Assembly (NCBI GenBank): GCA_964016885.1
Contig: OZ024740.1
Coordinates: 192,758,001 to 192,822,000 of the forward strand
Reading direction: 5' to 3'
DNA from: Eledone cirrhosa
Taxonomy: Eukaryota
Length of the DNA stretch: 64,000 bases
Shown: in pieces, positions 1,190 to 56,251 of the stretch
How positions within the stretch are numbered: the stretch's first letter is position 1
Layout of the letters: each line of letters opens with the position of its first letter
The notes under the pieces: generated by a model
Seen by the model: the letters and a program-made list of their open reading frames with translations, nothing else
The model's database searches: none
Told to the model about the DNA's origin: nothing
Position numbers and translations under genes: made by a program

Positions 1190-1405
1190 TTTCTCACAGA
1201 TGTGAAAAAAACCACAGACCCTCCATTTCAACTCTACTTATTAAAATCAGAACTGTGAGACCGGTAAAGGAATCAAATAAATATATATATATTTTTTAAA
1301 TAAGACTCCAGTTGCATTTTCGGTTTCATCTTTTTTTCTTTATACATTCACTCGTGTAGGACACCTCGATTATTTTTCATTTTGTAAAAAGATACCCACT
1401 TTCTA
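1190..1405 (+). mobile_element. Fragment of the Neptune-type PLE pseudo-LTR
   Basis: Similar to 45985-46200. Its HHR is decayed. Confidence 0.75.
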
Positions 1406-5700: not shown

Positions 5701-5880
5701 ACACAAGTGTGAGATATCGTCATTTATCTCAATGTGGTTAGAGTATTGCGGTATTGGTGTGAATTTCAGTCCTTTGGAGAGAATTTTAATTTATTGGGTT
5801 GAGATGATTGTATTTGAAAGATTGATTGTTTTCGGGTTTTTTAAATCGGTTTGTACCACCAGGTGTCATTGGTCCTGTAG
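2790..5880 (-). mobile_element. 5'-truncated, degraded Neptune-type PLE (RT + GIY-YIG)
   Basis: ORF pieces WKRYLDDCLIL (RT) and HAIKCKRCNEDYIGQT (GIY-YIG). Colinear with 40.4-43.8 kb. Confidence 0.92.
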
Positions 5881-5895
5881 ACTTATATATCTATA

Positions 5896-6952: not shown

Positions 6953-7183
6953 CCTAGATAAAATCATTCTCTTAATGCTTACCTGTGTTTTCTCTTTTAT
7001 ACTTTATACTCCTAGATTGAACGGAATTATTACAAACTTGTGGAGTTACCCCTAACCATACGTTGAAACCATACATGAAACTGGCTTTCTTAACTACGAA
7101 CTGGATCACAAAAAGCAATTTTCTGCTTCCCTAACTACAGGCTCTTCATCGCTCGAGCAACCACCTAAACATACGGTACTACT

Positions 7184-9560
7184 ATGGAAAATCATTACAT
7201 AGGTATGTCCCTAAAGAACATTCCTATACCTCTGAGAATAATATCCTCGGGATGATACAGAGAACAAACAAATTTATACGTAGAGTTAGATGGAAAACTT
7301 TCCATTTCGACAAAGGACGTAATGGTCTAACCGTGGAATACAACAAGGAGACATACGGCTTCAAATCGTTTAAGAACCCACCTACCAACCCTCAACTGGA
7401 TGCCTTTGAACAGGACTTACTGAAGATGATTATGAATATCAAATTCAAAATGCGGAAGAATAATAAACTCCAGAATGACATAAATACATTCCTAAAAAAG
7501 CTGCGAACCACCAATGGAATTATTGTCAAAGCGGACAAAACCTCAAATGTGTATACGATGGATGTTAATACATACAATAGCTTCAGACGGAAAGAATTAC
7601 ATAGGAAATACAAAAAAAATCTAATGAGGCGGCACTGATAAACATCAACAACGAGGCACACAATATAGTCAAACACCTAGGAATAGACGACAGAACGGAG
7701 CCACTTAGGCCATGTACCCCCACATTTAATCTCGAGGACCACAAGGTGAATTTTGATTATAACCCCACAATTAGATTTATATGCCCGTCCAAATCGGACA
7801 TCAGGAAAATTAGTAAACATATATTAGACAGAGTGATAGTACAAATGAAGAATAAACTGGTGATTAAGCTATGGGGTAACGCTACCGAAACAGTTAAGGC
7901 GTTTAACAATATAGCTAACAAAAAAGTATCTAAATTTATACAATTTGACATTAACGACTATTACTCCTCTATATCCCCCAACACCTTGGATAAAGCCTTA
8001 GCATTCGCCAAAGCCAATTCTGACCTAACAGACGACGAGATAAAAATCATATTAGCTGCTAGGAAAACAATAATTAAATTTGAAAACGCCTATTGGGAAA
8101 GTAAGGATAGATTAAAAAACTTTGACATCACGATGGGGGCTAACGACTCGGCTCAAGTCACAGATTTAGTAGGTATTTACATAGCCCATAGTTTACAAAG
8201 TGAGTTTAGCGACATTCACGGCGGAATCTACAGAGACGACGCCCTTCTCCTAGTTAAGAACCTAAATAACCAGAACATAGAAAGGCTCCGTAAGAATATT
8301 AGAAAGACTCTCGGGAAACTAGGCCTTAGCATAACGCATGAGTATAGCACTAAAACAGTTAACTGTCTAGACGCGACTCTTAACCTAAATACGGGACTTA
8401 TAAGACCTTTTCATAAGATTAATGAAAACTTAGCATACATCAACTGTAACTCAAACCACCCACTATCCATAATTAAATCCATTCCAGACAGCATATCCCT
8501 TAAGATCTCCCGCCTCTCGTCTAACCGACAAATCTTCGAAGAACATGCAAAATACTACAATACCACATTAGACAAGGCAAGCCACTTAGATAGAGTAGAA
8601 TATATAGATGAAAACCTCCGTAAAACGCACACGGACACGCATAACACAAACTCCTGAAACACACGCATACACGCACTTACGCATAGAAGTACAAAGTATA
8701 CGGTAAATAGAAATACAACATCGAAATCAAACAAGTCACGCAGTAGAAAATATATTTGGTATAACCCCATATTTAACACCTGTATTAGTACTAACCTACC
8801 CTCTACCTTCTTTATAATAATAAATAAGCACTTTCCAGATTCACATAGATACAGCAAAATCCTTAACACTAAATCTATTAGACTATCTTACTCCACGGCA
8901 CCAAATATGGAGGCACACATTAAGATGCTTAACGCTAAAAAGATACATAACAACACCAGAACAAAAATGTACAACAATAACAATACAATCACCATTGAAC
9001 ACAACAGAATATCTAATACACAACCACCCACTAATAGGCACACAAAACGTAACACACTTGTACAGGCATCGCAGCCCACCAATAATGCCAAGGTTGCTCA
9101 TGATAAGAATTGTAACTGCCACCTACCTGAAACCTGTCCATTATATAATGAATGTACGCAGTCTAACCTGGTTTACCAATGCACAGTGGAATCAGACAAC
9201 CAGAAATGGTATTACATCGGCGCGACTGGGAATACATTTAAAGACCGTTGGTATACACACCGTTACGCAATGAAACATTCCCAGCTTCGTTATGTAACTA
9301 CCCTTGCAAACAAGACCTGGCAACTGTGGGAAAGTAAGCATCAATACACCCTGAAGTGGAACACATTATCGAACGCGCCCCCATATCGGAGTGGCATGAG
9401 AAACTGTCGATTATGCGACCTTGAGCTGTTCCACATTTAGAGATCGAAGAATAAGTTACTCAACAATAAATCGAAAGATCAATTTATTGTAACCATAGAC
9501 TCAAAGAGAAGTTTTCGCACTACAAGTGCAAATCGAACCTTAACCTCTTACTACCAACTG
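7184..9560 (+). pseudogene. PLE RT-GIY-YIG polyprotein, frameshifted
   Basis: Motifs SLKNIPIP, IVKADKT, FIQFDINDYY, ITMGANDSAQ, IYRDDAL, CNCx5CPLYNEC, LVYQC...YYIGAT and CRLC are spread over ORFs 7252, 7746 and 8907. Confidence 0.92.
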
Positions 9561-10513: not shown

Positions 10514-10580
10514 TATTTCATTATACATATTTCAGAGGTACTGAGTTAACTTCAACAGTACGTCCTCATCAGATGAAATA
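10514..10580 (-). ncRNA. Minimal type-I hammerhead ribozyme
   Basis: UAUUUCAU-CUGAUGA-GGacGUACUG...CAGUACCUCU-GAAA-UAUGU-AUA|AUGAAAUA, with a perfect 8-bp stem I. Confidence 0.85.
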
Positions 10581-13500
10581 AGATGATGTATGACATACCC
10601 TGACATAGTAGATGGTTAAGATTCAGTCATGGCATTGAGTAATATATGACAAAACTCAATATATATATATACCTTAATATTGAGAACATGAGAAAAATAT
10701 ATAATACATACAATAATGAGGGTGCGTGTGAGACAGCTTAAAAAATACTTGGCATCAATATAACTGTTAAACAAATTGGAATTACTGATGAAAGAGGAAA
10801 GAAAGGAAAGCATAGAGTTAGAAACAGCTGATGGGATAATATAGTTAGTACAGGCCTCGAAAAACAAAAGATAGTTGATTACAGAGAGAGAATCAAAGAG
10901 GAATAACTTATGTTCAAGTTTTTAGACAATTATCCATATATACAATATATATCTAAACTTATTTGGTTGACCGTTAATATAACAAAATATTTCATTTAAG
11001 TTAGTTCAGAGTTATGAATAATATTTTAGGTTTTAAAAGTTAATAGGTATCTGTATTAATATTAAAGTATACTATCAACTTTAATTTCTAAAATCAAACT
11101 TTATGAAATAAAATTTAAAGGAATTACAAACATGAGAAAGAAAGCATAAAGTTTTTACAACCTCACGAAGGTAAATGTTACCAAAATTATTTATAATATT
11201 GACAACAGTTTATATAATATAATTTAGAAAATAATTACAGTTATAATTTTTAAAGAATTTATGATTAACAATTTGAGTGCCTAAAAATCAACAGGCCTTA
11301 TAATTAAACTTAAAGAGGTCTGAATTTTAAATTACATATATGTGTTTATTAAAAAAATACACGAAGATTATATTGTCTAAAGACTTAAGATGATACCTTT
11401 CAAATATACATAAGATAATACAATATAGTAAATACGTTACTGAAAATATTGTTAAAAATTAATGTTTTAGATCAATTATTGTAAAAGGATCATTTAATAG
11501 ATATATACTATAAATATATACGTCAAAACTACATGAGTCCTAAGGATAAGGGCTAAATACAAAATAAAAAATAAAACGTAAAAAAATAATGAATTGTTTG
11601 CGAAACATAAAAAAGCCCAATATTAAAAATATAGTTTAAAATGCAAGAGGGTTTTAATATATAGTAGACAAAAGAACTTCTAAAATGTCCAGCGAATGTG
11701 ATAGAAAAAGGAGCTAAATATTTGAAAAAGCCGAAGGTAATCTAAATTTAATTAAAATAAAGTAAATTAAATTAAATTAAGTAATAATCATTATATAATT
11801 TCGAACATCAATGGAATATCTAACACGTATAACAATAGAGAGTCATTTGAGTATCTAAATTACTTATAAATGTAGCTACGAGCATGTTATTACACTAGAT
11901 AAACATATTTGTACAACTATATAGAGAGTATTATAGGTATTAGTGAAACGATATACATATAATAAATAGATAATTATTATCATTATTAGTAATGCTATAA
12001 TTGTAGTTTTACGTCCAGTTCAGTGGAAAGAGAGACCAATATTTGTCGACTAGTATGGTTTGTTATATTTATACCTAGATATATATAAAAAAATATATAT
12101 GTGTAAATCTATCTTTCTGAGTCCCAAAACATATCCAAATTGAGTAAAATATATAAATGCATGAATGATCTACGGTTCAATTATAACCGGTAATCTCACA
12201 AGTTAAATATCCAAATTATATATTTAAAACAGAGCCAAATATATAAAAATCCGAATCTCAATTATAAATATCTAAAATAATTCAAAGGTGTGCATATTTA
12301 TCAAGAGAATAAGTTTACAAATAATATGTTTATATACCTAAACAGGATCCTTCATTCTAACATTAATTCTATCATAAATGATTAGAAAATAAAGTATTAT
12401 TAAAGTTTTATAAACTGTTATAACGTTTTAGGTCCAACAGTTGATAAGAGACGTCAGAAATTAAAACCTGTTTGTTTAGTGTTTTTTTTCTGACTTTTTT
12501 CGAGGCTTGGGATGTAGACAAAGCATTATGAAGGCAGTTTGAGAATAATTCACTTTTTTTGTTAATTAAGTTTCCATAATTAGTAATTATTAATAGGGTC
12601 TCCTTCGTGAAGAGGTTGCAGTTAGTTGATATAGACGAGTTCGAGTAGATTCTACTATTACAAAGCTTCGTCCAAAAAATCGAGTATTTAAAATGTTTAT
12701 CTTTTAATGACCATATAAGTTGTAATAAAGAACTCGAAGATTTCCTATTAAAATTCGAAAACGAGCTTTTGTGATTCGCAAATCTCGATTTAAATGTCGA
12801 AGAAGTTGCCCCTATGCAGTTGTATGTGTTGTTATTTGTTTTTACGGGGCATTTATACACTAAATTTCTATCCAGACAATTATTTTGCAGAGGGCAATCT
12901 GGTTTATTTTTACAATTACATTTCGATTTATTATTATTTATACTAACACTATTATTAACATCATTATGCTGATTTTGGTTTAGAATTCTACTATTTAGTT
13001 TAGCGATGTTCTGGACCATATTCATAGTTGTAGAATAAGAAAGCTTAATTGTGTGTCTATTAAATATGGAACAGTATTTATGTTGACTAGGGAAGGAATT
13101 ATCTAAAGCCTTAAAGAATAGATTAGCTAGTGGTGTACTTACTGCTAAAGAAGCAGGGGGGGGGAACCATATAACTGATTTAGTTCTGGTTCTTTTCCCC
13201 GATTTAATCACAGTACAGGTGTTTGACTTATAATTTTTAGAATTTCGTTTATAATGCCAGTCATATTATTATTATATTTATCAGGATTAAGATTCGAAAT
13301 ATTATTGTCTATATATTCTATATTATTTTTATAACCTGCCTTTCTTAGCGCATCATTGTAATATCCTGCTTTTTCATCAAACATTGATTTATTGGCAGGT
13401 ATTCTAGTTATGCGTTTCTGTACACTATTGACAATTGTATTTTTCACAGATTTAGGGTGATTAGAGTAATAACTAACATAATTTAAGTTTTCATTGGGCT

Positions 13501-15899: not shown

Positions 15900-18800
15900 G
15901 GTTACTCGTGGCGAAAAACACACAAAAGGCCACGGCCACCCTGACCACCAGGGCAAGCGCCCTGTCTCAATTTTTCCATCTCTCAAACTACAGACGTATA
16001 TTCAGAGCGGTCCCGTTATCTCGGACCATCCTCGCTACATTCACCCACCTTTCAACAAACTTGCTAGAAGGCAGCACTTGCCTGTCCAGCCTGATTTACC
16101 TCTTCAACTGAAACTTGAAAAAGTTAATTAGGGATTCGCCGAAGAGGAAAGTGTCTGTCTTTAACCATTTCAACCTTGACCACTACACAACCTCTTCGCC
16201 ATGGCGACCAGGCAGGTGAAAACCGCCTGCCCTTTCTCCTCGAAGGAAGACGGCGAGATCATCTGCACAATGGACTCAGTCGATAACCGGATCAGTCCTA
16301 CACGCGATAGCAACTGTTCGACATAGCTCCACAAGTCAGCAATACTCGGGCACTGAACGAGTGCGTGCAAGACGGTTTCGTCGCTCTGCGCGCATCTCGG
16401 ACAGGCTCGGCTGATTGCACTTCCGTGCCTGTAAATCTTATCTCGAACCGGCAGCGCTCCCCGGTAGCACTGCCAACCCAGGGATTTTTGGAAGTTATCC
16501 ATAGGCACTGGGTTTGAAAGTTCTCCGGAAGAGAGCAAACAGCTGATCTTCTTCGACGCCCAGGATCTCTCCAATTACGTCGTCGCTCTCCCCCTCGACT
16601 AGTCCTCTGTAGAACGCTGAGGGGGATGTTTCACCGATACTAGTGCCCAGCTGGAGCAAAGGGCCGTGAGCGCCTGGAGACATTCCACTTTCCAAGCGCT
16701 ATCCCTCGGTATTTTTTTGACCCAGGACTGCAGCTCCGTCAAGGAGACGAGCTGTCGGAAAACTTGCCAATGAACGGCGACCACACCCGTTCACCGTCAA
16801 GGAAGCATGTTTGCGCATTATCATCCATGGCATGCCCAGTCCACCACGCAACGGGTGTTGACAGCAGATGGATCGTCTGACCATGGGAGCGCGTCCCTTC
16901 CACAAAAAGCGGAAGAGGAGGCGCTCCATTTTGGTGAGAGTTGAGCCGGGCAAGGGACGACGGTGAGGCGGCAGCAGATGACGGATGTGATGAACGCATT
17001 CGCCACCTCCGCCCGGCCTTTCAGAGACAGCTTCCTCTCGGCCCATTTCTGGGTGAGGGAGGCCACCCTGCTCGTCACCGCGTTCCAGTTTTTCTCCATC
17101 TGGAGGTCCGGTCCGAACCAGACCCCGAGCAATTTAATCGTTCCGTCCGTCTAACGCCCCACGACTCTGTCGGACGGCATGGACTTGCCTCTCCAGGTGC
17201 CGAGCTGCAAGCCCACCGACTTTTACTGGTTTATCTTTGCCGCTGTCACCGCTTCGTATTCCTTGAGAGCCGTGCCGAGCATCTGGACGTGTCTGCTGCT
17301 CGACAGCACCATATTGAAGTCGTCGGCGTATGTCGACTCGGATTTCCCGCATGCTAGTTAGCGTGGGACGCCCCTCATCGCCCCCAGTTTGTGCAGTAAC
17401 GGCTCGAGAGCCAACACGTACGAGAGGGGCGAGAGGGGACAACCCTGGCGGACTGAGCGCATGATGCTGAACGGCTGCGACAGGTAACCGTTTGCCCTCA
17501 CAACTGAGCAGATGTCGCTGTACATCGCTGCGATCCAACCCCTGAAAACGGGCCCGAAACCGGCTGCCTCGAGGACCAACGCCAGGTACCGATGGTCGAT
17601 TCTATCGAATGCTTTGGATTGATCCAACTTGATCAGGGCCCCACCCGTGCCAAGTTCCTTAACCACCCTCTCTATGATGTATCGCATGAGGTGGAGGTTG
17701 TCGTGTATGGATCTGTCCGGAATGGCGCATGTCTGCGCCTTTCCCAACAGACCCTTGACGATAAGCGCCAACCTCCTTGCTAACACCATGGCCATAATCT
17801 TGAACTCTGCGTTTAACAGAGTTATGGGCCTGAATTATCGATAACATCCCCCTTGTTCGGGTCTTTTCTCAGAACCGACACTGCTCCCCGGCTCACAAAA
17901 TTGCGAATGCACCCATTCTGCTGGCAGTTGCAATAGACGTCTGCATAAAGCTCGTAGGGCAGACCATCCAAACCTGGCGATTTACCCCTCGTGCACTTAG
18001 CCATCGCTTCCCGTATTTCACCGTCTGTTATTGACTTTTCGCAACACTGTGCTGCGGTCATCGAGAGCCAATGCAGTCCGTCGAGGTGTGCACGTCGAGG
18101 TGTCCATGCCCGATCCGAGCCGCCTCTGCTCTCGAACAGTTCAGCAAAGTGCTGCTGAAAAGCTTCACACATCCGCTCGGTTTCAAGCATCACGCACCCG
18201 TTTTGGTCAGACAAAGACCAAATTGTGGCTGTTTTGCCACGTCGCGCTTCTGCCACCCGGGCCCATTGGACGGCTTTTGTCCCCTCGTGTTTCAGAGCCC
18301 GCGCTCTTGCTCTGACAACGCAGCCTTCGTGTTTTGCGTTGAAGAATTGGTCGAGTACCAATCTCGCCGCAAGCACGTCGGTTGCGATGTCTGTCCTAAA
18401 CGCCTCTTCTAGCTTTCTAACTAGCTCTCCCTCTACTCTATTTTCCTCTATCACTACTCCTTTACTAAACCTAATCGACTCTACTTTAATTGCCCTTTTC
18501 AGGGCGAACCACCACCTGTTGATGACGACCGCTCCCGTCAACGCCCGCTTAACTAATACGCTAATTCGGTCTCTGTAGGCTTTGCGCGCCGGGAAAGACG
18601 CGTTCAGCTTCCAGTAACCAGGCCCTTGTCTATGAAGTCTGTCTATTTCGCTCTCACAGATCACAAATTCGTGGTGGTGTAGTCGATATTTTAAATTGTT
18701 GACAACTAAAACTAGCCTTATCTAGTTCTCTGCAGAATACTCTATCGAGATACGATCTGGATGACACGATGCGATTTGTCCATGTCCACATTGGCACATT

Positions 18801-19340
18801 CGGGTGATCCAGTCGATACCTGTCAGACAGTTCAAAACGTCTGAGTAGGTTTGTGAGGCTCTTGCACCGTCCTCCCCTATCCACTAGCCCCACACAATCC
18901 CAGCGTGCATCCACGATACCGTTCCAGTCGTCCACTAACACTAAAGAGCGGGACGTTCCAAGAAAGGTCTCTAGACGTCTGAAGAAATCTGGTCGTCCTG
19001 CCCCTGTTGGGGCGTAGGCGGCTACTCCCCTGAAAGCATTGTCTTCGCTGCCGGTCACGTCCAGCACCACCGACTTACCTTCTGGGTCTAGGAAGATGGC
19101 ATGTATGGCGAGAGCCACACCTCTCCGAAAAAGGACGGCAACCCCTCCCCCCGTTCCTGGACGGCTGGGAGATGCGTATACATCGTAGCCGCCGAAGATC
19201 GCTGCGAAGGCTTGTGCTTCGGAGATTCTGGTGTCACTGATGGCCACCACATCTATGTTTAGTTCGTTGAGCAGGTGACCCTGCTTCCAAGATGAGCCCA
19301 GGTCACGTGCATTTATACTTCCTTTTCTGAGTACGGCCAT
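15900..19340 (-). pseudogene. Tx1-like ORF2 (APE endonuclease, RT, zf-RVT)
   Basis: Motifs SINARDL, VAAYAP, YLDRVF, GPGYWKLN, KSPGLDGLP, LDQSKAFD, VRQGCPLSP, YADD (near 17320-17331) and CPRC...ETVLHALVQC, with many frameshifts. Confidence 0.92.
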
Positions 19341-19550
19341 GTTGGATGAGAAACGGAGCAAGTGAGAAAGGGTCACTTAGCTTGATCATGTGGTCAAGGG
19401 ACCGTAGAACCGTCCCTTTCGCTGTCATGGGTGTTTCCAAGAGGATGTCAGTGTATATCCTCTTGGTAACCGACCCGCTGAAATCTCCAACTGCGTTGGG
19501 GAATTTTTATTTTAAAGGTTTGTACTGTTCTATTGAGATTTCAATGATGC

Positions 19551-21457
19551 TTATGTTTGTTGGGAGAGTTCTTGGTCTTGGTGGACTAGTAGTTTTTTTC
19601 TGTGATGTCTGTGTGCTGCTTTATATATTGTATGAGTTCTTTTTTTGCCATGTTTATGGCTGTGTACTTTTTGGGGGGAGGGGTGATTTTGTTGCTGTTT
19701 TCTTATTGTTGCTGTTTGGTGTGTGTGTTTTGTTTTGTTTGCGTTGTTGGTATGTTTAGTGATGCTGATGATGGTGTGGTTGTTGTTGTCAGTAGTTCTT
19801 GTGGTGGTGTTGCTGCAAGTTTCCTGGTTGCCTTTACCCCTCTTTGTATGCCTTCGCTTTTGGAGGGTGAATCTAAGGGTTTTTTTTTTTCTTCTTTGTG
19901 GCAGACCGTTTGCCACTTCACTCCCGCCTCAAACTCCATGTCGGATTCCGTGGCGTCTGGGAGGAGTATGTTCTCCACGGCTGTTGGTGGTGGTAGTAGC
20001 GCCCTCTTCGGAAATTGTGTTGCTGGTGTAGCTACTTCAAATGTAGCTATTGGTGTGTCGTCACTGATACTGCTGCTTTAGTTGTCCATGGCCTTGGTAC
20101 GGGTGCCACGGACGTTGCCCTGCTACTCACCGTGGAAGGGGCTTCTGCGTGTGTAGCCTGCCCTGCTCTTGGTAGCAGCGGACCAGGTATTGGAAGGAGA
20201 GGGCCCTCTTCTTCGCTGTCTTCTGCGGGCAAAAGGCCCTGAGGTGACCCTTCGACCCACAGAGGTAACATTTTTGCCGTCTTCCTTCTACGCTTATAAG
20301 GAGTTGGAGTCCTTCCTCGATGTCTATGATATCGGGGATAGCGTCGATACATTCCTGGTCAGTTTGAATAAACATTTGCATGCATATAAGTGACCATTTC
20401 TTTCTCCCTATTTTCTCTACTTGCAGCATGGTCATCCTGTCCTCGATTCCAGCAAGGACAGAGGCGGCTAGCCAAGGTATGGGGACGTCGGGTGGGACCT
20501 GGGTCACTTTGACCCTCACAATTTTCTGCCCGTAGTAGGAGGGCACCAAGACTATCTCCTCACTCTTTAGGGTTTCCAAAGAGTGAGACTCTTTTACCTG
20601 CGAGTGGCAAAAAGTACGTCTACTGTGGCATACTTTCTGCCTCGGGTGAAGTGGGTTTTACGTGCCCAGACGCACACCAAGGCCTTTTGCATTTGAGCCT
20701 CCGTGGCTCTCTCCACACGATGTGAGATTTTGCTTACGGTGCGGTAAGTCACCGTCCGTAGCTGCTGGTCCTTGAAAAAATCGGGTGGAGGTTTCAGGGA
20801 GATTCTATTGGTGCTTCTTGTCACCATAGCCTTTGCGACTGCCATCTCCTCCTCTGTGACTAACACTGTCTCGATATTTCGGGCGACATCTGCAAAAGAA
20901 GTGGTCCCTTTTTCAGCAGCACCACTATTGCTGCCGCTACTGGTCTTACTGGTAGTGCTGAGATCGCTATTACAGGTATCTGTGTCATTGTTGTTGTTTT
21001 CGTTGGTACAGTTGTTGGTATTCTTGTTGTTGTTTTCCTTGATACTGTTGCTGTTGTTACTCTTATTGTGGCTGTTGTTATTATTGTAGTTTTTGTTGAT
21101 ACTGTTCCTACTATTATTGTTGTTGTGGCTGTTGTTATTGTCATTGTAATTGTCGTTCTCGACCTTACCGCTGTTATCTTTGTTATTGTCGTTCTCGACT
21201 TTACCGCTGTTATTTTTGTTGTTGCTGTTGTTATTGATGGTGTTGATGTTGGTGTTGTTGTTGGTGTTATTGTTGGTGTTGTTTCTGTTAGAAATATTTG
21301 TTAATTTTAAAGCTGTAACAATCTTCTTTTCCTTTGTAATATTTTCGTTTATATTTACGTCCGCTGGAATAGTGTCTTGTTGACATGCTGATAAAGTCTT
21401 CCTCTCTCTGTGTTGTCTGACAGCGCTCTCTCTGTTTCTTGTGTTATCCATGTTCAA
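19551..21457 (-). pseudogene. Tx1-like ORF1 with Asn-rich N-terminus and zinc knuckle
   Basis: ORFs 20594-21457 (poly-N, SFADVA) and 20127-20579 (CYLCGSKGHLRAFC), followed by a low-complexity tail with WQTV. Confidence 0.85.
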
Positions 21458-21807
21458 ATTTGTTTTTTCAAAAAGTATTTTTACACAAATACGACACCCC
21501 GTAAAGGGGTGCCGTATTATTTACGAGTGAACCCCTGTATTAGGTGGGTCACTTCTTCTAAACTTTTATCAAATTTAGAACTTGAATAAAAGGTTTAGAA
21601 CGGTTGGAAACGAGGTAAAACGTTGAAAAAAACTCTAAGCGATAAGAAGCGTGGCTTCACCAACAATAATAATAATAATTATTATTATTATTATTATTAA
21701 TATTATTATTATTATTCTCTACATTCCTTACATCAAACTAAAATATGTTGACAATCTTTTAATTATGTCTTGCTTGTGAAATGTGTGGTCTTGTTTTGCT
21801 TAACTAA

Positions 21808-21956: not shown

Positions 21957-24900
21957 ATAACGAAGGAAATGTGGTAAGGAACCAGGTGGACCAAAACGCA
22001 CCAAAGTACTCAATACTTACAGTAGTAGAGCGGGTAAACCCTAAACAGTGAAAGACAGTAATTTATTACTACCTTATTACCATTAAGATAAATAGCTCAA
22101 TGTAATAACATCAGTTGTTCTAATGAGCAGTTATATAGAAATCACATGAATCAAAGTTCTGTTCCAACCATTTATTAGCTTACAATTGTTTCGTCCAAAC
22201 CGAGGTTTGGAGTATTCGGAGCAATTTTTCAATGATTGTTTCAACATAAGAGACATACAGAAACATTTGTATATAACGATGCACAGTGGGGTGACATCCA
22301 TTATAATATTTTAGCATGGCAATTTACATTCAAAAATTAAAATCATATTAAAAGAAAATTAAAACAAAATTAACGTTAGAATACAACATCGGCAGTTTAC
22401 GAAGATAATGCAAGAGGATAGTTTGAAGTAGTTAGTGTATGCAATAGTTACACGTGGGGCATGCACGTGTGTCTTATTTATATAAGATTATTGTGCGGCA
22501 AGGTGTTATATGCGATACAAGCACTTTAAGCGGGTAATCAAGAGTATTATGGGGGTTGTATTGGTAAAGTATTTTTTATGTATGATAAAGAAGCTTGTGT
22601 GCAGAAAAATATTAAAAATGAGAAGTAAAATAATGTTATGGTTTTTGTATACTCCACCATTTTCACAATTCAGGAAACGTAATATATAGATTATAAGTCC
22701 TTCACATAATTAACGATGATTCAGTATTATATGCTTGATGTATTAGGTTAGATTATTACAGCTTGTTGTTCTTTAATCCAATTTTATAGAGCAGGTTGTT
22801 TTTGTTGCGAGAATTCACATCGTTTTATTTTCCGGAAGTATGTGTGTGATTAAGGGGAGTTAATGCGTGAGGGGAGGTAACTAGCTGATTTCTATAACTA
22901 AATTTATTATTCCAATGTACATTAAACGGTGTCCCAATTGAGTCCCTTACATATATGGTTATAAACAGTTTCTAAATTTAAGTATCCTATCTTTAAATTA
23001 CAGTCTAGTCTATCAAGAAGTACTAAAGGTCTCCATATTAGGATGATTACCCTCTATCATAGAGTGCCACAACTGAATATTCCACATGAAGAGTCAGATC
23101 TCCAAATCAATGATCTTCGTAAATGTAGTCTCCCCACAGAACCTGGCAGGGTTTTATTAGAACCACGTCTATATACAACCCCTGCTAAGCTCTGGGTCAG
23201 CGCATGTCTAATTGCATGGCAAAGTTAAATATCTCTAGGGTAGACCAGCGAGCAATTCTCACTTACAATGTCATTAATCTGTCTATCAAGTCATACATGT
23301 ATGTACAACTCATATACTACTTGTACATAATTCATTGTACTAAGCATATAGGTTATATAGCTCTTTTATGTTAATAAATTAATCTTCTATTTATCCAATG
23401 ATGGCACTCCATACACAGAACAACATTAGCACAAACAATTCAGTGTTTAAAGTTTACATTTAATTATATAGTGGTGTAATGTAGTCTAAGTAATTGAAGG
23501 CAAATATACTAAAAGTAGATGTACATGGGGGTATTTCTAGGGTATAATGTTCTAGATAGATGTCAGTAATTGTGTTAAGATAGGGTGGATCATTGAGTGT
23601 GGAGTTGTGGTGTAAGGTGTGCCCATGAGATGTGTTGCTGGAAGTGGTGATGGGTTCAAGTATGACATTGCTATATATTGGGTTTAAAGTTATGGAAGAA
23701 GTGTTGGAAGCGGTGCTGGCATGACGCGAACACTTCTGATTTTTTATTAAGGAGTTTATGGTTTGAGAAGATAATAGTATGGGTCTCTAGTAGACAGAGG
23801 TTACAAAATGTATTATGTGATTTGTACGATGCCGCCTTACCTATCACTTCCCATTTAAGTGTATAAGATTTAGTTTTAGTTTTTAGATAGTGTATGTAGC
23901 TAGATAGTGAAGTGGAGTTGGCTAGACTGTGTTTATTGAAAGAGTGGAGGTGCGAATTGTATCTGGTTTTGAAGCAGTTTGAAGTAGAGCCTATATAGGT
24001 TTCAGAAGAGTTGATAGTTGTGACGGTGCATGAGTATATGATATCCTTGATTAAGCATTTTTATCTAAAGGGCAGGTTCTATTAGATCTACAGTTACAAT
24101 TATTCTGGGTGTTAGTCTGCCGGTTATTATGTTGTGTAGAAGTCTGGATTGTAGCTGTAGGATTATGGTTATGGGGGTTGTCGTTCCCAGCGTTATTGCT
24201 TACACTAGTGCTATTACTATTATTACTATTGTTATCAGGGTTAGTTGATATAATGTTATTTTGAAGGTTTACCGCCTGTTGTGATTTAGTTTGTTGGAAG
24301 TAAGAATTAATTTTTCTTTTATTGCTACTAGCTATGTGGTATGCTATGTTAGGCGTAGTAGAGTAGGAGATTTTAATTGTGTTTTTGTTTAAAAGGCTAT
24401 GGTACTTGTGGCCAGATGGGAAGTTTTTATGTAGGAGTGAGAAGAAAGCCTTAGGTAGGTTTGTAGAGACGTTTAGTTAGAAAGGAGGGTTGAAAAATGT
24501 ACTATTTCTTCTTCTATTTTTGTTTTTTTATGTCTGGTGAGTTGTTTCTTTTTACGGTACTATGGTAACTTCTATGGTAACGTATTAGTGTGTGCGGTTG
24601 CTATTCTTATTACTAAATTTCCTCATGGACATATTGTGCGAAATAATGTTGTAGCTCTGTGTTTTTGTAGGTAGGAACTCGATCTCTATATTATGGCCTG
24701 ATCTAGCTAATGCCTTATTATAATATTGCGAGTTTTTGCTAAATATGTTTACGTCATAGGATAGATTAGAGATTCTATTGGATACTCCCTTAGAGATGGA
24801 GTTTAATATTGATCTAGGGTAGTTAGACTCGGTATCTACGTAAATCAGTGTTTCGTTAGGTTTATGGAAAGGTGTATATATATTTGAGTCTATGTAGAGG

Positions 24901-25497
24901 GTGGCGTCTAGGAAGTTAACGTTTTTAGTGTTGTTGTCTATGGTGATACTGAGGTTATAGTTTTTGAATGTCTTGTGCAATAGTTTTCTAGTTCTTTCTA
25001 TATTGAATTTTTTATAGTCTATAAGTAGAAGTGCATCATCGCGGTACAAACCAACCGTTGAGTTATGGAAGGTCCTTATGGATTTTGTTAAGTAAATATA
25101 GGCCGACCAAATCAGTGACCTGCGCCGATTCATTAGATCCCATGGTTATGTCGAAGTTGTTTTGCGTATCCTTGCGGGTCCATAATTGGTCTTCAAAGGT
25201 GATTCCGGTTTTACGGGCCGCAAGTATGACATCAATCTGGGGTCTAGTCAGGTCACTATTGTCCATGGCCATGATTAGTGCCTTATTTAATAGGATAGGG
25301 GAAATAGAGGTGTAGTATGAATTGATATCAAATTGAATAATGTTGTTATCCTTGTTATCCTTGATATCTTTGAACCATTCAATAACTTCACCCGTATTTC
25401 CCCATTGTTTAAAGTATATCTTGTGTTTAATATGTGGGATAATTTTATCTAAAATGTTCTTACTGATAATGCCAATGTCAGACTTGGAAGGGCATTC
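21957..25497 (-). mobile_element. 5'-truncated PLE (YRDD/CxC type)
   Basis: RT motifs CPSKSDIG, IIQFDINSYY, ITMGSNESAQ and LYRDDAL. EN remnant NCRSNRTCPL...TYIGSTS at about 23980-24100. Confidence 0.88.
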
Positions 25498-25920
25498 CTT
25501 CACATCTTCTCTCCATTTACCCCGCTTTAAAGCAAGCACTTCCCAGTTCTGACCTTCAAACTGTACATCTATAAGTTTGTTTTTCATGCAATCTTCATAT
25601 CTTTTTCTTGGTTTGTGCTGAGGGCGTTTCCCAGTGTGCAATTGACTGTAAAATAGATGATTTGGGAGTCTTTACCCATTCATGCACACAACATGTCCTA
25701 CCCAACGCGTTTAAGAGGATATGGCGGTAGATTCAATGCTCGTACAACCAGCTTCTACAAGGATGTGTGAGTCAGGTATTTTCTGTTGCCAATTTGATGT
25801 TTAGGATTCGTCCTAAACATATTTTATTAAAGTGTTCAAGTAAATTAAGGTGTCTACGATGTACAGTCTACGTTTTCGAAGAGTACAACAGAGCAGTGCA
25901 AATGCAGTCATTGTACACAA
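25498..25920 (-). mobile_element. RTE-clade LINE 3' fragment
   Basis: GKRPQHKPRKRYEDCMK...WEVLALKRGKWR resembles an RTE C-terminus; a WVGHV-like motif lies upstream. Confidence 0.7.
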
Positions 25921-26657: not shown

Positions 26658-26732
<75 letters not shown>

Positions 26733-26734
<2 letters not shown>

Positions 26735-27035
26735 CAAAGTGAGGTTTATTTTTACAAAATGAAAGATAACCGAAGTGTACTACACGAGCGAAAGTATAAA
26801 GAAAAGAGGATGAAATCAAAAATGCAACTGGAGTCTGATTTTTAAGAAAATATATATATTTATTTGCTTCCTTTACCGGTTTCGCAGTTCTTATGCTTTT
26901 CAAAAGTAGTGTTGAGATGGGGGCTCTGTGGTTTTTCTCACATCAGAAACCGGTAAAAGAACCAAATATATATATATATTTTTTTTTTTAAATAAGATTC
27001 CAGTTGTATTTTGGATTTCACGTTTTTTTTCTTTA
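26733..27035 (-). mobile_element. Solo Neptune-type pLTR end with short inversion; HHR (U3:A8) at 26870-26907
   Basis: Similar to 44965-45180. About 26946-27030 is an inverted copy of about 26805-26884. Confidence 0.8.
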
Positions 27036-40103: not shown

Positions 40104-40220
<117 letters not shown>

Positions 40221-40291
40221 AAAAAGAGATGAAATCGAAAATGCAACTGGAGTCTTATTTTTAAAAAAAAAATATATATATTTATTTGGTT

Positions 40292-40329
40292 CCTTTACCG
40301 GTTTCGCAGATCTTCTGCTTTTCAAAAGG
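40292..40329 (-). ncRNA. Minimal hammerhead, U3:A8 core variant
   Basis: CCUU-UUGAAAA-GCAGA aga UCUGC-GAAAC-CG-GUA|AAGG. Confidence 0.8.
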
Positions 40330-41072
40330 TGAGTTGAGATGGAGGGTCTGTGGTTTTTCTCACACCTGGTTGGTCTCTGAATGTTACTTGTTTTATATGG
40401 AAAAAGTTGCTCGAAATGCCAGGTTTTTCGAGAAGTAATTTGATTGGTTTGTCAATAATTATAATAAATATCGCGCCAGTTCGCGTTACAATAGTTCTTC
40501 AAATAAGAGGGGGGGGTTGTCACAGGTTGTTTTTTTTCATATATGAGTGTTTGAATTTCTTTTTACTTGAAAAAAGGGGCTCACGAAGGCTTTTTTGGGG
40601 TTGGTTATAAATGAAATTATGGCTGTCACGTGAACAAGTTTTCATTAAATTTTCGTGTCCTTATTTGGAAATCCATTCTGTAGCCTTTTTAGAGAATTTT
40701 GTGATAAGTGAAAGATAATGGTCAAGAGAAAGGGATGGGAGAATTGTTCTGGTTCAGTGAATATGGTTAGTTCGCTGTGGTGTCAGAATTCAGATTGTCT
40801 ATTGAATAAAGAAAGTAAAGATATGTATGTTTATTTGTGTGCTTCTGTGTGTGTGTGTGTGTTGTGTGTGTGTGTGTTTGAATTTCTTTACTTTAAAAAA
40901 AGGTGGCTCACGAAGGCTTTTTTTTAATAAACGTGATTTGATTGGTTATATAATGGGATTGGGAGAATTGTTCTGGTTCAGTGAATATGGTTAGTTCGCT
41001 GGGGTGTCGGAGTTCAGATTTTCTATTGAAGTAAAGATATGTATGTTTATTTGTGTGCTTGTGTGTGTGTGT

Positions 41073-41580: not shown

Positions 41581-44500
41581 TTAAACCTTATTTAATGTTG
41601 GTCTATATTTTTGAATAAACATATTTTCCTTATTTATTCGTATTTGTTCTGTTGTATTGTTAGCGCAAAGGTAAAATGGGAAGACTTGGAATTTGGGTGT
41701 CTTATTACTTGCGCAAATGTCTAGATGTGCACTTAGTGGTATCTGTCTCGTGGTTGGATCTCGTAATTGTTGGCGATGAACTGTCATTCTGTTTCTGAGC
41801 GTGAATTTAGTTTGTCCTATATAATATCCATTGCATCCTTTACATTTAATGGCATAAATTAGATTGTTTGATGAGCAAGTGAAGTGATTTTTTACAGTAA
41901 AATTTTGTCCTGATTTAAATGTATACGTGTTGCCTTCAATGAGATGAGTGCAGGTTCCACAATTAGAGCGACCACATTTTTTGATACTTGGTTGTGGGTT
42001 TGTGGTAGGTAATTTGGCATTGGTGAGTAATGTTTTCAGTGATTTTGGTTGTCCTTTGCTTTTGATTATTTTGTGTGTTTCAAGGGATTTTTTCATTCTT
42101 GGGTTTTGTTTTAGTCGTGGGATGTTCTTGTGAATAGTGTTGTACGCTTCCGCATTTCTTGGGTTTTGTGTTGAGATATATGATAGAATATTGGACGTAC
42201 CTTGAATTTGTTTTTGTTTCCGTAATTCATCAATGCCTATTGCTTTAGCCCTTTCTATTCCATTATTTATTAGTAATAGTGGGTACTCTCTCTCGAGTAG
42301 AATTTCCTTTAGTTCTTGAAGTCTTTTATTTCGCGTTTCATAATTGGAGACAATTGTGCAAATTCTTCTTGCTAGGTTAAAAGGAATGTTCGTCTTCGTG
42401 TGTTTTGGATGGTTGGAGGTGAATAGCAGATATTGTTTGGAATCTGTTGGTTTGTAGTGTATGTCAGTTTCGATATTGGTGTCTTTTTTTAAGATTAAGA
42501 TGTCCAGAAATGGGAGTTGATCTTGGCTGTATTCCATTGTGAATTGGATGAGGTTATTGATGCCGTTTATTAAGTTTTTGAAATCCTTCAGTTGGTCGAG
42601 TGTGTGGGACCAAAGAATGAGGCAATCTTCCAAGTAGCGTTTCCAATTCTCTGATAAATATTTGTGGAAGTTCAATCCTTATTTTGATTTGGACTGTTCA
42701 TATATCTGGACTTCTAAGTATGCCATGACTAAGTTGGCATAAGTTGGAGCGGCTTTTGTACCCATCGCAGTCCCCGATATGTGCTTGTAAGTATTGCCAT
42801 CGAAATCAAAAAAGTTGTTCTGTAAGATGAATTTTAATCCCTCGGTGATGAAGCTTTTTTCTATTCTGTCAGGTATCTCATTGGGATATTTCTCTAGCCA
42901 GAATCCTATTACTTCTAGTCCGTATTGGTGTGGGATCGTTGTGTAGAGATTCACTACATCGAAAGACACAATAATAGTGTCGTTGTTGACATGTTTGGGG
43001 AGGTGGTTTAAGAGGTCCAGATCGTCTCTTACAAGGCTTGGTATGTGTTTCAGTATTGGTTTCAGTAGTATGTCTATAAAGTTGCTCAGTCTGTATGTTT
43101 CAAATTGTGGGCCCGCTACAATTGGTCTTAATTTAAGGTCTGTGGGGTATTGTGTGTTCACGCAGGCTGAGGTGGATTGTTTCAGGCATCGTTGATTATT
43201 TTACACTTGTGGATCTTCGGAAGTCCGTAAAGGTTGCTGGTTTTGTATTCAAAATTTGTTAAATAATCGCGTTCCTTTTAGTTAGGTCTTCCTGGTATCG
43301 ATAAATCAGTGTGTTTAATTTGGTCATTATTTTTGATTGCTGGTAGTTTTTTACTCTTTCATAGTAATTAGTATTTTGTAAGAGAGAGAACATATAATTT
43401 TTATATTTTTCAGCCTCCATAATGACAACAGTACTTCCCTTGTCCGCTTCCTTAATTATAATGTCATGGTATGGGAAGGTAGCTATGTGGTCACAAAATT
43501 TGTCCAGAACTCTGTTTCTACCTTTTGTTGGGTTGTAGCTGCTTTTATTCCGTACAATTTATTCGTCGTTATTCTTCTTGTCAAAGAATTCCTCTGTGAG
43601 ACGTAATTTTCTACAGAAGTGTGAGATATCGTCATTTATCTCATTGGGATTAGAGTATTGTGGTGTTGGTGTGAATTTCAGTCCTTTGGAGAGAATTTTT
43701 ACTTGTTGGGCTGAGAGGTTCGTATTTGAAAGGTTAATTATTTTCGGTTTTTCAAAATCGGTTTGTGCCACCGGGTGTCGTGAGTCCTGTAGCCTTGGTC
43801 TAAAAAATGATTTTTCTTGAATGTTTTTTCAATGGTATTATTATATCTAATGGTATTTCCCCTGTGTTTGTGTGGTCTTGTATAGAAGTTTCGGACGTAT
43901 TGAGGTTCGGTTTGTTGATAGTCCGGGCTGTAGATTTTCTTCCTTTGTGTGGGTTGGGATCTACGGTTTTGGAACAGGCTCTGTGTGGGCAGGGGTCTAC
44001 GGTTTTGGAATAGGTTTTGTGTGGGTTGTGATCTGCGGATCAGGTCCTGCCTTGTGTTCGGGGATCTTTGGTATTTGTTAGTAGGGTTATAGTTTTGTCT
44101 ATGGTTTCTGGGATTATCGTTATAGTTTTGTTGGGGGTGTGTTGGACGTTTTGTTACTTTTTTTGTTATTTGTTGTGCATGTGGTGTGTGAGTTTTAGTT
44201 TGTTTTAAAAATGGGTTACCTGTATGTTGTTCCTTTTTGAAGTCCATTTCGTAGTTGTTGAACCAGGTGGAGTTTTTTCCCATCGCTGGGGGGATGTTAG
44301 TTCTTCATCCTCACAGTTTTCTTTCCAAAGTTTTAGGGTTTTCTTGTAGAGTAGGCCTTCAGAGTGCTTTGAGATTTCTGTGTCCATATGTTGGTCGAGT
44401 GACTTGAATTTTTCTTCGTTGGAGTTGGCTCTTAATCGCAACAGTTCTATTTCTGTTTTAAATTTTGCCAATGCCATCTTTTCCCTAAGTCTTTGTTGGT

Positions 44501-44940
44501 TTTCTGGTTCATTCGGGATGGGTTTTATTTGAAGTGTTTTGGGGAGGATGATTGGGGTAGAGTTTAGCCACTTTTCATATATGTCTGCCTTGCCATTATT
44601 TTTTAGGAGATTCCAAAGGGCGAATTTGCGGGCTGTGAGCTTTTGAGTCCATATGTTGATTAGGGTGTTTTTTCACTGAGTGGACATCTCGTATATTGGG
44701 TTCTAACGGTTGTTCCAGCTTTTGGAGCATTGCTGTTTCAATGGTTTCGATTAGCTTAGTTAATACTGGAGTAATATTCGTCTTTTGGGTATTTTCTGTT
44801 TCTTTGTGGAGTCCTTTTTTATAGATGTGTATTTGGTCCACTTTGTTGGTCAAAATTAAGAGTTTAGAGGAAATCTCTTTGAGTTCATTTAAGATGTCCT
44901 GGTTCAGTGAGTTGTTGTTTTGTTCAGACTTTGGTGGCAT
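41581..44940 (-). pseudogene. PLE polyprotein: long N-terminus, RT, CxxxxCxxC linker, GIY-YIG with CCHH; several frameshifts
   Basis: LSKGLKFTPTP, LRPIVAG, SFDVVNLYT, GTAMGT, WKRYLEDC, LPFLD, HYKPTD, CGRSNCGTC, LIYAIKCKGC.YYIGQT and HR...HL. Confidence 0.95.
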
Positions 44941-45106
44941 TTTCGGTCTTCGTGTGGTGGGTATATATTAGAAAGTGAGGTTTTTTTTACAAAATGAAAA
45001 ATAACCGAGGTGTCCTACACGAGTGAAAGTATAAAGAAAAAGAGATGAAATCGAAAATGCAACTGGAGTCTTATTTTTTTTTTTAAATATATATATTTAT
45101 TTGGTT

Positions 45107-45144
45107 CCTTTACAGGTTTCGCAGTTCTTCTGATTTTCAAAAGG
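45107..45144 (-). ncRNA. Minimal hammerhead, U3:A8 variant (5' pLTR)
   Basis: CCUU-UUGAAAA-uCAG...CUGC-GAAAC-CU-GUA|AAGG. Confidence 0.72.
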
Positions 45145-46024
45145 TGAGTTGAGATGGAGGGTCTGTGGTTTTTCTCACATCTGGTTGGTCTCTGAATGTT
45201 ACTTGTTTTATATGGAAAAAGTTGCTCGAAATGCCAGGTTTTTCGAGAAGTAATTTGATTGGTTTGTCAATAATTATAATAATTTCGCGCCAGTTCGCGT
45301 TACAATAGTTCTTCAAATAATCATTGTCATAACATTCTCTATGAAGGCTACAGAATAGATTTCCAAATAAGGGCGAAAAAATGTAAAGAAAACTTGTTCA
45401 CGTGACAGCCAAATTTCATTTCTAACCAATCAAATCACGTTTATTAAAAAAAAAAGCCTTCGTGAGCCACCTTTTTTTTAAGTAAAGAAATTCAAACACA
45501 CACACAAGCACACAAATAAACATACATATCTTTACTTTCTTTATTCAATAGAAAATCTGAATTCTGACACCCCAGCGAACTAACCATATTCACTGAACCA
45601 GAACAATTCTCCCATCCCTTTCTCTTGACCATTATCTTTCACTTATCACAAAATTCTCTAAAAAGGCTACAGAATGGATTTCCAAATAAGGACACGAAAA
45701 TTTAATGAAAACTTGTTCACATGACAGCCATAATTTCATTTATAACCAACCAAAAAAAAGCCTTCGTGAACCCCTTTTTTCAAGTAAAAAGAAATTCAAA
45801 CACTCATATATGAAAAAACAACCTGTGACAACCTCCCCCCCCCCCTCTTATTTGAAGAACTATTGTAACGCGAACTGGCGCGATATTTATTATAATTATT
45901 GACAAACCAATCAAATTACTTCTCGAAAAACCTTGCATTTCGAGCCACTTTTTCCATATAAAACAAGTAACATTCAGAGACCAACCAGATGTGAGAAAAA
46001 CCACAGACCCTCCATCTCAACTCA

Positions 46025-46062
46025 CCTTTTGAAAAGCAGAAGAACTGCGAAACCGGTAAAGA
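46025..46062 (+). ncRNA. Minimal hammerhead, U3:A8 variant (inverted pLTR)
   Basis: CCUU-UUGAAAA-GCAG aagaa CUGC-GAAAC-CG-GUA|AAG. Confidence 0.75.
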
Positions 46063-46194
46063 AACCAAATAAATATATATATATTTTTTTTTAAATAAGA
46101 CTCCAGTTGCATTTTCGATTTCATTTCTTTTTCTTTATACTTTCACTTGTGTAGGACTCCTCGGTTATTTTTCATTTTGTAAAAAAACCCTCAG

Positions 46195-46240
<46 letters not shown>

Positions 46241-55285: not shown

Positions 55286-56251
55286 ATAAAAACAAATAAC
55301 GAAACGAAATTAAATTTCGTTTCGTTTGTAACTCACTTTTGTATGACTGACGCTTAAACAATTAAGTTAGAAGTGTACATCCACATATGTATATTGAAAT
55401 ACTAGTATGCATATAAATACACACACGTATACATATGTAGATGTACCGAGTTTTTCACTGGACACTTTACTGTGAGTGTTCAGCTAGTCTGTATGTAAAC
55501 ACACAGACAAACCGGTGTTTAGAGTCATACTGGTTTTCGAGGAAACACCTTTCCAATATTCCTGTCTGGCCCTCTGGAGAATAGAGGAAAGGTGTTTCCT
55601 CGAAAACCAGTATGACTCTAAAAACCGGTTTGTCTGTGTGTTTACATACAGACTAGCTGAACACTCACAGTAAAGTGTCCAGTGAAAAACTCGGTACATC
55701 TACATATGTATACGTGTGTGTATTTATATGCATACTAGTATTTCAGTATACATATGTGGATGTACACTTCTAACTTAATTGTTTAAGCGTCAGTCATACA
55801 AAAGTGAGTTACAAACGAAACGAAATTTAATTTCGTTTCGTTATTTGTTTTTATCGCCTCCGCTGAACCGGTACGTACTCACGCTCTATGCAAATTAGTC
55901 TGCCCACTACTAATTTTCATAGAAAAAGCATATAACGATATGTGCTTTTACGATTCTCTAGAGGGGCCGGAGGATGGGTAAATATTGCTGATGAGATGTA
56001 ACAACATCGAAACTAGTCCAATATTCCTGTCTGGCCCTCTGGAGAATAGAGGAAAGGTGTTTCCTCGAAAACCAGTATGACTCTAAAAACCGGTTTGTCT
56101 GTGTGTTTACATACAGACTAGCTGAACACTCACAGTAAAGTGTCCAGTGAAAAACTCGGTACATCTACATATGTATACGTGTGTGTATTTATATGCATAC
56201 TAGTATTTCAGTATACATATGTGGATGTACACTTCTAACTTAATTGTTTAA
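55286..56251 (+). mobile_element. Non-coding HHR element (retrozyme-like): inverted head + 465-bp unit + partial second unit
   Basis: 55554-55786 is repeated at 56019-56251. 55286-55553 is an inverted copy of about 55586-55854. Confidence 0.9.
55981..56025 (+). ncRNA. Canonical minimal type-I hammerhead ribozyme
   Basis: AAUAUUG-CUGAUGA-GAUGU aaca ACAUC-GAAAC-UA-GUC|CAAUAUU. All stems pair perfectly; predicted cleavage after 56018. Confidence 0.93.

Follow-up and report, generated by a model that had tools for sequence, protein, structure and literature searches.

The window analysed here, a 64,000-nucleotide stretch of the Eledone cirrhosa genome, contains a PLE of the Neptune type that is composed of an inverted truncated copy, a 5' pseudo-LTR, a coding region and a 3' pseudo-LTR and is bordered on either side by (TA)n. 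The 5' pseudo-LTR (45030..45320, minus strand) starts 210 nt upstream of a predicted hammerhead cut and is 95.6% identical to the 3' copy, whose region (40214..40506, minus strand) extends for 79 nt beyond the predicted cut and stops in a (TA)n tract, the short end. The inverted copy, which is truncated at its 5' side and represents the 3' part of the element (45409..46207, plus strand), extends for 147 nt beyond the cut to the long or 'tail' end, again with (TA)n. Two reading frames occupy the coding region. ORF1 (43738..44940, minus strand) encodes 400 aa in intact copies, belongs to no Pfam family and carries two frameshifts in the window copy. ORF2 (41581..43828, minus strand, -1 frame) encodes an RT, a CX4CxxC linker and a GIY-YIG endonuclease; it spans 775 aa from stop to stop in intact relatives, with the first Met at residue 163, and is interrupted by two stops, a deletion and frameshifts in the window. 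The window element is a dead relic, and the single whole ORF that the earlier note had placed within a unit RNA gives way to two ORFs, broken in this copy. Both are open in 9 out of 20 fetched near-identical copies of the same family, referred to as family A.

ORF1 and ORF2 overlap by 88 nt, and the overlap harbors the heptamer U UUU UUA in the ORF1 frame (43801..43807, minus strand), a predicted -1 frameshift site. This heptamer is found at the same place in the window, in 19/20 family A copies and in 2/3 copies of a related family B. In five of six ORF1 homologues, the protein terminates with F-L and then DTRW or DTGW. For ORF2, the 120 best homologues, sought between 640 and 2000 aa, all measure 641–788 aa; those with names come from bivalves or bivalve samples. 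Given the conserved heptamer, the F-L ends and these lengths, the two ORFs are likely joined by a predicted programmed -1 ribosomal frameshift. A search of the sequence after the slippery heptamer found no convincing candidate for an H-type pseudoknot shared by families A and B. All intact copies combine ORF1 with ORF2 in the -1 frame, and a lone ORF as in canonical EN+ PLEs was not encountered among them.

The ORF1 product is helical and has six homologues; its single-sequence fold reached a pLDDT of 43. Atlas hits pointed to gag-like clusters at scores of 0.85 or less, which is a lead only. In the intact locus L120 (ORF1 at L120:2559-3758), Pfam RVT_1 scored 26.8 bits, below its cut-off of 29.6, and GIY-YIG 27.6 bits, above its cut-off of 22.6. 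The linker reads CGRSNCGTC and is followed by a CxxC-to-C spacer of 24 aa; spacers of 23–25 aa occur in 76 of the 120 homologues, 43 others being unmatched by the search expression. By eye, this spacer resembles the Neptune and not the Nematis rows in the part of Craig 2021 that was available (Fig. S2). Together with the C-terminal endonuclease, the long spacer bears out, by the same visual comparison, the earlier assignment to a Neptune-type PLE pseudo-LTR. Several other elements lie in the window. The Neptune-type family has a second, older and truncated member at 2980-5884 (minus strand), which is 88% identical and whose hammerhead end is not in place. Other PLE remnants at 7135-9440 (plus strand), 12408-13265 (minus strand) and 24585-25671 (minus strand) display DKT, MGAND/MGSND and CxCX5C motifs and fit, by eye, the Hydra clade as described in the available part of Craig 2021 (PMC8557442), while Pfam gave no match at E 0.01 on the scanned pieces of these Hydra-like remnants. 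At 17358-21520 (minus strand) lie the decayed remains of a non-LTR retrotransposon, in which frames for an endonuclease and an RT can be made out.

Within the 3' pseudo-LTR, at 40292..40329 on the minus strand, stands a type I hammerhead motif with a U3:A8 core, just where the earlier note had it; the sequence itself, the family count and fold and dimer energies speak for it. Read from 40329 to 40292, it consists of CCUU, the core UUGAAAA, GCAG-AAGAU-CUGC, GAA, ACCGGU, A and AAGG. The core comprises U3 (40325), U4, G5, A6, A7, A8 (40320) and A9; stem I is CCUU/AAGG (4 bp), stem II is GCAG/CUGC with loop AAGAU, closed by G10.1-C11.1, and stem III (A15.1-C-CG-G-U16.1) has two pairs and a CG loop within the palindrome ACCGGU. 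The predicted cut falls between 40296 (A17) and 40295. The general core N3-UGA-N-N8-A ... GAAA ... UH with a Watson-Crick 3-8 pair is thus present as U3:A8, and stems I–III and G10.1-C11.1 are in place; stem II covaries across families, stem I (2–4 bp) having weaker support. Folds displayed no helix beyond the 4-bp stem I, and the motif hence lacks the loop 1/loop 2 contact of canonical fast hammerheads. The motif is confirmed as a genuine hammerhead sequence in which U-A replaces the usual C-G core pair.

All four copies previously noted (26870, 40292, 45107 and 46025) do carry UUGAAAA. The same cannot be said of stems I–III, since only the 40292 copy retains all hammerhead elements intact in the window. 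The copy in the 5' pseudo-LTR (45107..45144, minus strand) is broken: G10.1 is changed to U, and loop III has become CU instead of CG, which destroys the dimer palindrome (duplex energy +1.6 vs -8.3 kcal/mol for ACCGGU). In the inverted, 5'-truncated upstream copy (46025..46062, plus strand), stem I is reduced to 3 bp, and in a solo 3'-end fragment of the same family (26726-26944) the hammerhead at 26870..26907 (minus strand) has 3 bp in both stem I and stem II. A fifth, decayed hammerhead copy that the earlier note did not contain lies in another solo fragment (1197-1412), at about 1236..1270 on the plus strand. An Rfam scan gave no hammerhead match at the four copies with E up to 5, among 150 of 152 matches listed, and folding z-scores of six folded stretches ranged from -1.5 to +0.3. 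With Rfam silent and the z-scores weak, the case for a hammerhead rests on comparison.

For this comparison, a 35-letter family A pattern with positions 3, 7 and 8 open was run over the 3.0-Gb genome along with a reversed control. It gave 11,680 exact matches, the control none, which puts the motif far above chance. U3:A8 is present in 99 of the 100 matches listed. C3 occurs in 39 matches, always with A8, and G8 in 19, always with U3; C3:G8 is absent from all 11,680. The family consensus is therefore U3:A8 and not CUGANGA, and the single changes C3:A8 and U3:G8 are at the level expected from post-insertion decay. In contigs from four other assemblies of runs from one study, no core position differs by at least 5%, and about half of the family A depth has a 3-bp stem I. 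Within family A, such uniformity is a product of recent copying and not of selection. The high number of motifs is explained by the position of the motif just inside the 3' end, so that nearly every truncated copy carries it, and by the many short copies that are broken off upstream of the cut and occur as fold-back pairs. In such short copies, most 5' breaks fall between -57 and -75 relative to the cut (1197 and 26944 in the window; loci L163-L202), at a near-palindromic stretch where the members of a fold-back pair meet.

More informative are the sister families. A looser U3:A8 pattern, with family A excluded, gave 3,789 matches vs 36 in the control; these matches divide into families B, C and C'. 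Family B has stem II GAUGG/CCAUC and C17, and is a full-length RT-EN element; the motif lies in both pseudo-LTRs of its three fetched loci, just as it does in the window and in nine further loci. Family C has stem II GAUG/CAUC with N7 = U, or C in the variant C', and families D (GCAUU/AAUGC), E (GUCC/GGAC) and F (GCCC/GGGC, N7 = G) are each represented by a single example in the fetched loci. ACCGGU is common to families A–D. The related families keep U3, A8, G10.1-C11.1 and ACCGGU, with A, U or C at N7 and A, C or U at H17. Between families, only N7, H17, stem II and the loops vary, and stem II remains paired, with compensatory changes at three positions; as MAFFT family alignments failed to align stem II, a table anchored on the structure was used to read these pairs. 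No family was seen to have G17 as its state. In families B and C, stem I is down to 2 bp, and a stem I of 2–3 bp is weak even among PLE hammerheads. In most copies of families A–D, UCAA stands 3–8 nt upstream of UUGA, where it might base-pair with the core into another hairpin.

That U3:A8 is kept while stem II, N7 and H17 change argues for a selected ribozyme, and this cross-family conservation is the main evidence that supports a selected hammerhead; the 2-bp stem I of families B and C speaks against it. The idea that a chance likeness was amplified by transposition could appeal to the missing Rfam match at the copies and to a short, AT-rich motif; it deserves next to no credence, as it is refuted by the compensatory changes at three stem II positions and is also contradicted by the position in the pseudo-LTR and by the occurrence of this very heptamer among the PLE hammerheads published for S. 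mansoni (PMC4209133). A catalytically dead hammerhead fossil, which reached U3:A8 by two transitions in an AT-rich lineage and now serves as a structural or protein-binding element for dimerisation or RT loading, would fit the very short stems I and the predicted U3-A17 latch described below. Naiad elements thrive without canonical hammerheads (PMC8557442, in part), and functions other than cleavage are possible according to the available part of Cervera 2014 (PMC4209133). Yet the core letters are fixed across families with unrelated stem II and loops, where only N7 and H17 vary, as catalysis expects; G17 is missing as a family state, and U3:A8 recurs in a tandem family with a covarying 4-bp stem III. 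A dead fossil is thus unlikely, and we infer that the motif would be functional as a ribozyme.

C3 versions of families B and C number eight, all of them C3:A8, and CUGANGA with an ACCGGU stem III occurs twice in the whole genome. No C3:G8 members of families A, B or C were found in this genome, so that the core switch cannot be placed on a tree within it. A comparable CUGANGA pattern gave 9,927 matches (control 222), of which the 100 that were listed come without exception from a single group of ~467-bp tandem repeats. All U3:A8 patterns together, some of which overlap and which cover part of the hammerhead forms, gave about 16,000 matches in the genome. The swap that this note described as rare is indeed compensatory, but with about 16,000 U3:A8 vs 9,927 CUGANGA matches it is not rare here, and CUGANGA-based censuses can miss the larger share of motifs in one animal genome.

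Part of this total comes from a further source of the U3:A8 core, a 316-nt tandem retrozyme-like family (family G) with the core UUGAUAA, C17 and a long stem I (L131-L160, e.g. G000:C1:6519942-6521556). It has 907 exact matches (control 0), and its arrays often contain an inverted copy. Its 4-bp stem III covaries between two sub-variants, ACAU/AUGU and ACAA/UUGU, and none of the 100 matches listed mixes the two. This family is predicted to cleave as a monomer, and retrozyme pipelines built on CUGANGA would miss it. No paper on a U3:A8 retrozyme was found in a literature search, which yielded Cervera 2014 only. Hammerheads of the usual core are also present in the window. A canonical CUGAUGA type I hammerhead at 55963-56040 (plus strand; Rfam HH9, 31.8 bits, below cut-off) belongs to the ~467-bp tandem retrozyme-like group, whose sub-variants differ by G/U:A-type changes in stem II. 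CUGAAGA hammerhead-like motifs with a palindromic AUGCAU stem III occur at 1643 (minus), 1963 (minus) and 2355 (plus) in a ~320-bp direct and inverted repeat, and CUGAUGA hammerhead-like motifs with a long stem II and a AUAUGUAU stem III at 10572 (minus), 13908 (plus) and 60424 (plus); the latter have relatives in five further loci.

Folding offers a picture of how the family A motif may work. As a monomer, the structure in which a U3-A17 pair lengthens stem I is predicted at -6.8 kcal/mol vs -5.1 kcal/mol, a predicted gap of 1.7 kcal/mol. This 5-bp stem I register is the computed minimum, but it pairs U3 with A17 and was taken as an inactive form. In a 310 nt context, the pairing probability of stem I is 0.03–0.06. 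The palindromic ACCGGU region suits dimers, its duplex being computed at -8.3 kcal/mol. When two copies are folded together, the structure of lowest energy is the double hammerhead with U3-A17 closed. A C3-G17 pair is inhibitory in hammerheads. By analogy, the U3-A17 pair, which adds one more pair to stem I, would damp activity, and families with C17 or U17 would escape it. In the likely mechanism, two copies would pair through ACCGGU and thereby build stem III, a Watson-Crick U3-A8 pair would stand in for the tertiary C3-G8 pair, with A8 retaining its 2'-OH, and cleavage after A17 would be slow, confined to the dimer and probably assisted by a protein of the element.

Whether such cuts define the mobile unit can be judged from the ends of genomic copies. 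The earlier note had derived a unit RNA of about 4815 nt from cuts in the two direct pseudo-LTRs. The spacing is right, as the direct hammerhead copies 40292 and 45107 lie 4,815 nt apart; the linear mobile unit is not supported, with copies that do not end at the cut and a broken 5' hammerhead. An end map was made from 58 alignments at 40 loci from the first places of contig C1, using a pattern that needed 3 nt past the cut. Here, 55/58 alignments continue beyond the cut for more than 60 nt. Most of them stop at +79 or +147, both times at a TATA that leads into (TA)n, and none stops at the cut itself. Because the selection pattern needed these three letters, copies with another letter at +1 were also searched. 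There are 122 of them, the search covering flanks that start with a letter other than A. The 100 listed consist almost entirely of point mutants in which the element continues, and one enters a TA-like tract. At the other end, among 40 copies that bear ORF1, the 5' end precedes the cut in 28 and follows it in 12, and in none is it within 10 nt. Five of the 40 begin at +25 to +28, at an AT-rich inverted repeat; a start site, a pause or a trimmed end are possible explanations. No genomic footprint of cleavage was found in these surveys of 3' ends, 5' ends and +1 variants.

These data bear on the proposal that both pseudo-LTR hammerheads cut and that the linear 4,815-nt RNA is reverse-transcribed from cut to cut. 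Its arithmetic is correct, such an RNA would hold both ORFs with the ORF1 ATG at +169, and the 5/40 starts at +25 to +28 as well as the 12/40 starts downstream of the cut are compatible with it. But a linear cut-to-cut RNA cannot yield copies whose 5' and 3' ends lie off the cut, and this holds for 55/58 alignments running more than 60 nt past it and for the 28/40 5' ends upstream of it, with a single TA-like entry among the 100 listed +1 variants; for Anolis PAc, moreover, uncut RNA is given as the main substrate (PMC11167929). The 45107 copy is also a poor pairing partner (-2.3 kcal/mol), so that the window locus would not release the proposed unit. Taken together, linear cut-to-cut copying is very improbable.

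The observed copies can be yielded by uncut tandem RNA or by a re-ligated circle. In the model of Cervera and de la Peña, both sites are cut and ligated, and the circular unit RNA is copied for more than one round, which builds the pseudo-LTR. A circle fits a cDNA start downstream of the junction that passes the junction twice, and likewise pseudo-LTRs of more than 1,200 nt, as seen in 5/40 copies, and lineage variants that the 5' and 3' repeats of one element share on either side of the cut (three fetched loci and the window). However, uncut tandem read-through RNA or template jumps account for the same data, the mean difference within elements (0.033) is about the same as between elements (0.036), and a circle leaves no scar visible in DNA. 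A circular template as the general route is therefore conceivable though on balance doubtful. Most RT templates would be uncut or re-ligated RNA, tandem or circular, and copying would begin from two start points (+79 and +147) at TATA microhomologies into (TA)n targets.

On the whole, we consider it probable that the locus carries an abundant hammerhead of Neptune-type PLE pseudo-LTRs with a U3:A8 core that likely cleaves after A17 slowly and as a dimer only, probably with help from a protein. In a wider view, U3:A8 would be the prevailing core in this genome for an entire Neptune clade with two ORFs and frameshifting and for a 316-nt retrozyme that standard CUGANGA pipelines overlook, and in family A the swap would create a U3-A17 latch that stays closed until a protein of the element opens it, so that the variant would act as a regulatory switch and not as a neutral swap; this appears quite improbable at present. 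As family A is young and abundant, with both ORFs open in the above 9/20 copies, it provides natural material for testing PLE hammerhead function, and natural A17, C17 and U17 versions of the U3:A8 core are on offer for such tests. The end map speaks against cleavage as the step that fixes where the copied RNA begins and ends, here in a second clade of PLEs. Besides this map, the more useful by-products of the analysis are the large size of the U3:A8 clade, the arrangement in two ORFs and the tandem family of 316 nt with its U3:A8 core.

In the literature, no study of octopus hammerheads was found. Lünse 2017 reportedly comprises about 150,000 PLE-linked hammerhead variants, and this family may already be covered by the data of Lünse 2017, Hammann 2012, Przybilski and Hammann 2007 or Nelson and Uhlenbeck 2008. 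The U3:A8 variant has already been published and is not new in itself. In the available part of Cervera and de la Peña 2014 (PMC4209133), U3-A8 is given for about 1,300 S. mansoni PLE hammerheads, and UUGAAAAA is listed among them. The motif described here resembles these Schistosoma mansoni Cercyon hammerheads in its core swap, with UUGAAAA in S. mansoni(4), in its type I form, pseudo-LTR site, palindromic stem III region and short stem I, and in the prevalence of solo copies. The same source says of its own first descriptor what the earlier note said of CUGANGA-based ones, namely that motifs of this kind would be missed. It describes PLE minimal hammerheads as lacking the loop 1/loop 2 tertiary contact and reports low activity, seen in dimers only, for a minimal hammerhead, and the slow, dimer-dependent, possibly protein-assisted cleavage proposed above fits these published hammerheads. 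A further trait of the published PLE minimal hammerheads is absent from families A–G, as it is from rows such as Marsupenaeus in that part of the source. Perreault 2011 (PMC3088659) cites C3-G8 to U3-A8 covariation in several natural ribozymes as active in vitro; the available part of that paper gives no multi-copy retroelement family, whereas in the present case a clade has become fixed for the variant.

With regard to the element, PLE clades are defined in Craig 2021 (PMC8557442), and what was available of the descriptions of Neptune PLEs agrees with an RT bearing GxKF and DKG, a CX4CxxC linker with a long spacer, a C-terminal GIY-YIG with C-C-H-H, pseudo-LTRs, an inverted upstream copy, an optional tail and (TA)n targets. 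The tail differs in length, being 68 nt here and 30–40 bp in the Neptune description. Canonical EN+ PLEs are described as single-ORF elements, in contrast to the two ORFs and predicted -1 frameshift of this family; the legend of Fig. 1 in Craig 2021 mentions an ORF1 separable by a frameshift. For the Anolis Poseidon element PAc, Frangieh 2024 (PMC11167929) reports that cleavage is assisted by protein but dispensable for insertion, that RT starts at two internal points and that no reads end at the cut. The family described here is similar in its two discrete 3' ends downstream of the ribozyme and in its AT-rich targets, with no ends at the cut. In PAc, however, the core is C3-G8 and the ribozyme overlaps the start codon, whereas the cut lies 169 nt before ORF1 in the present family, and, unlike in PAc, both of its ends have TATA microhomology to the target.
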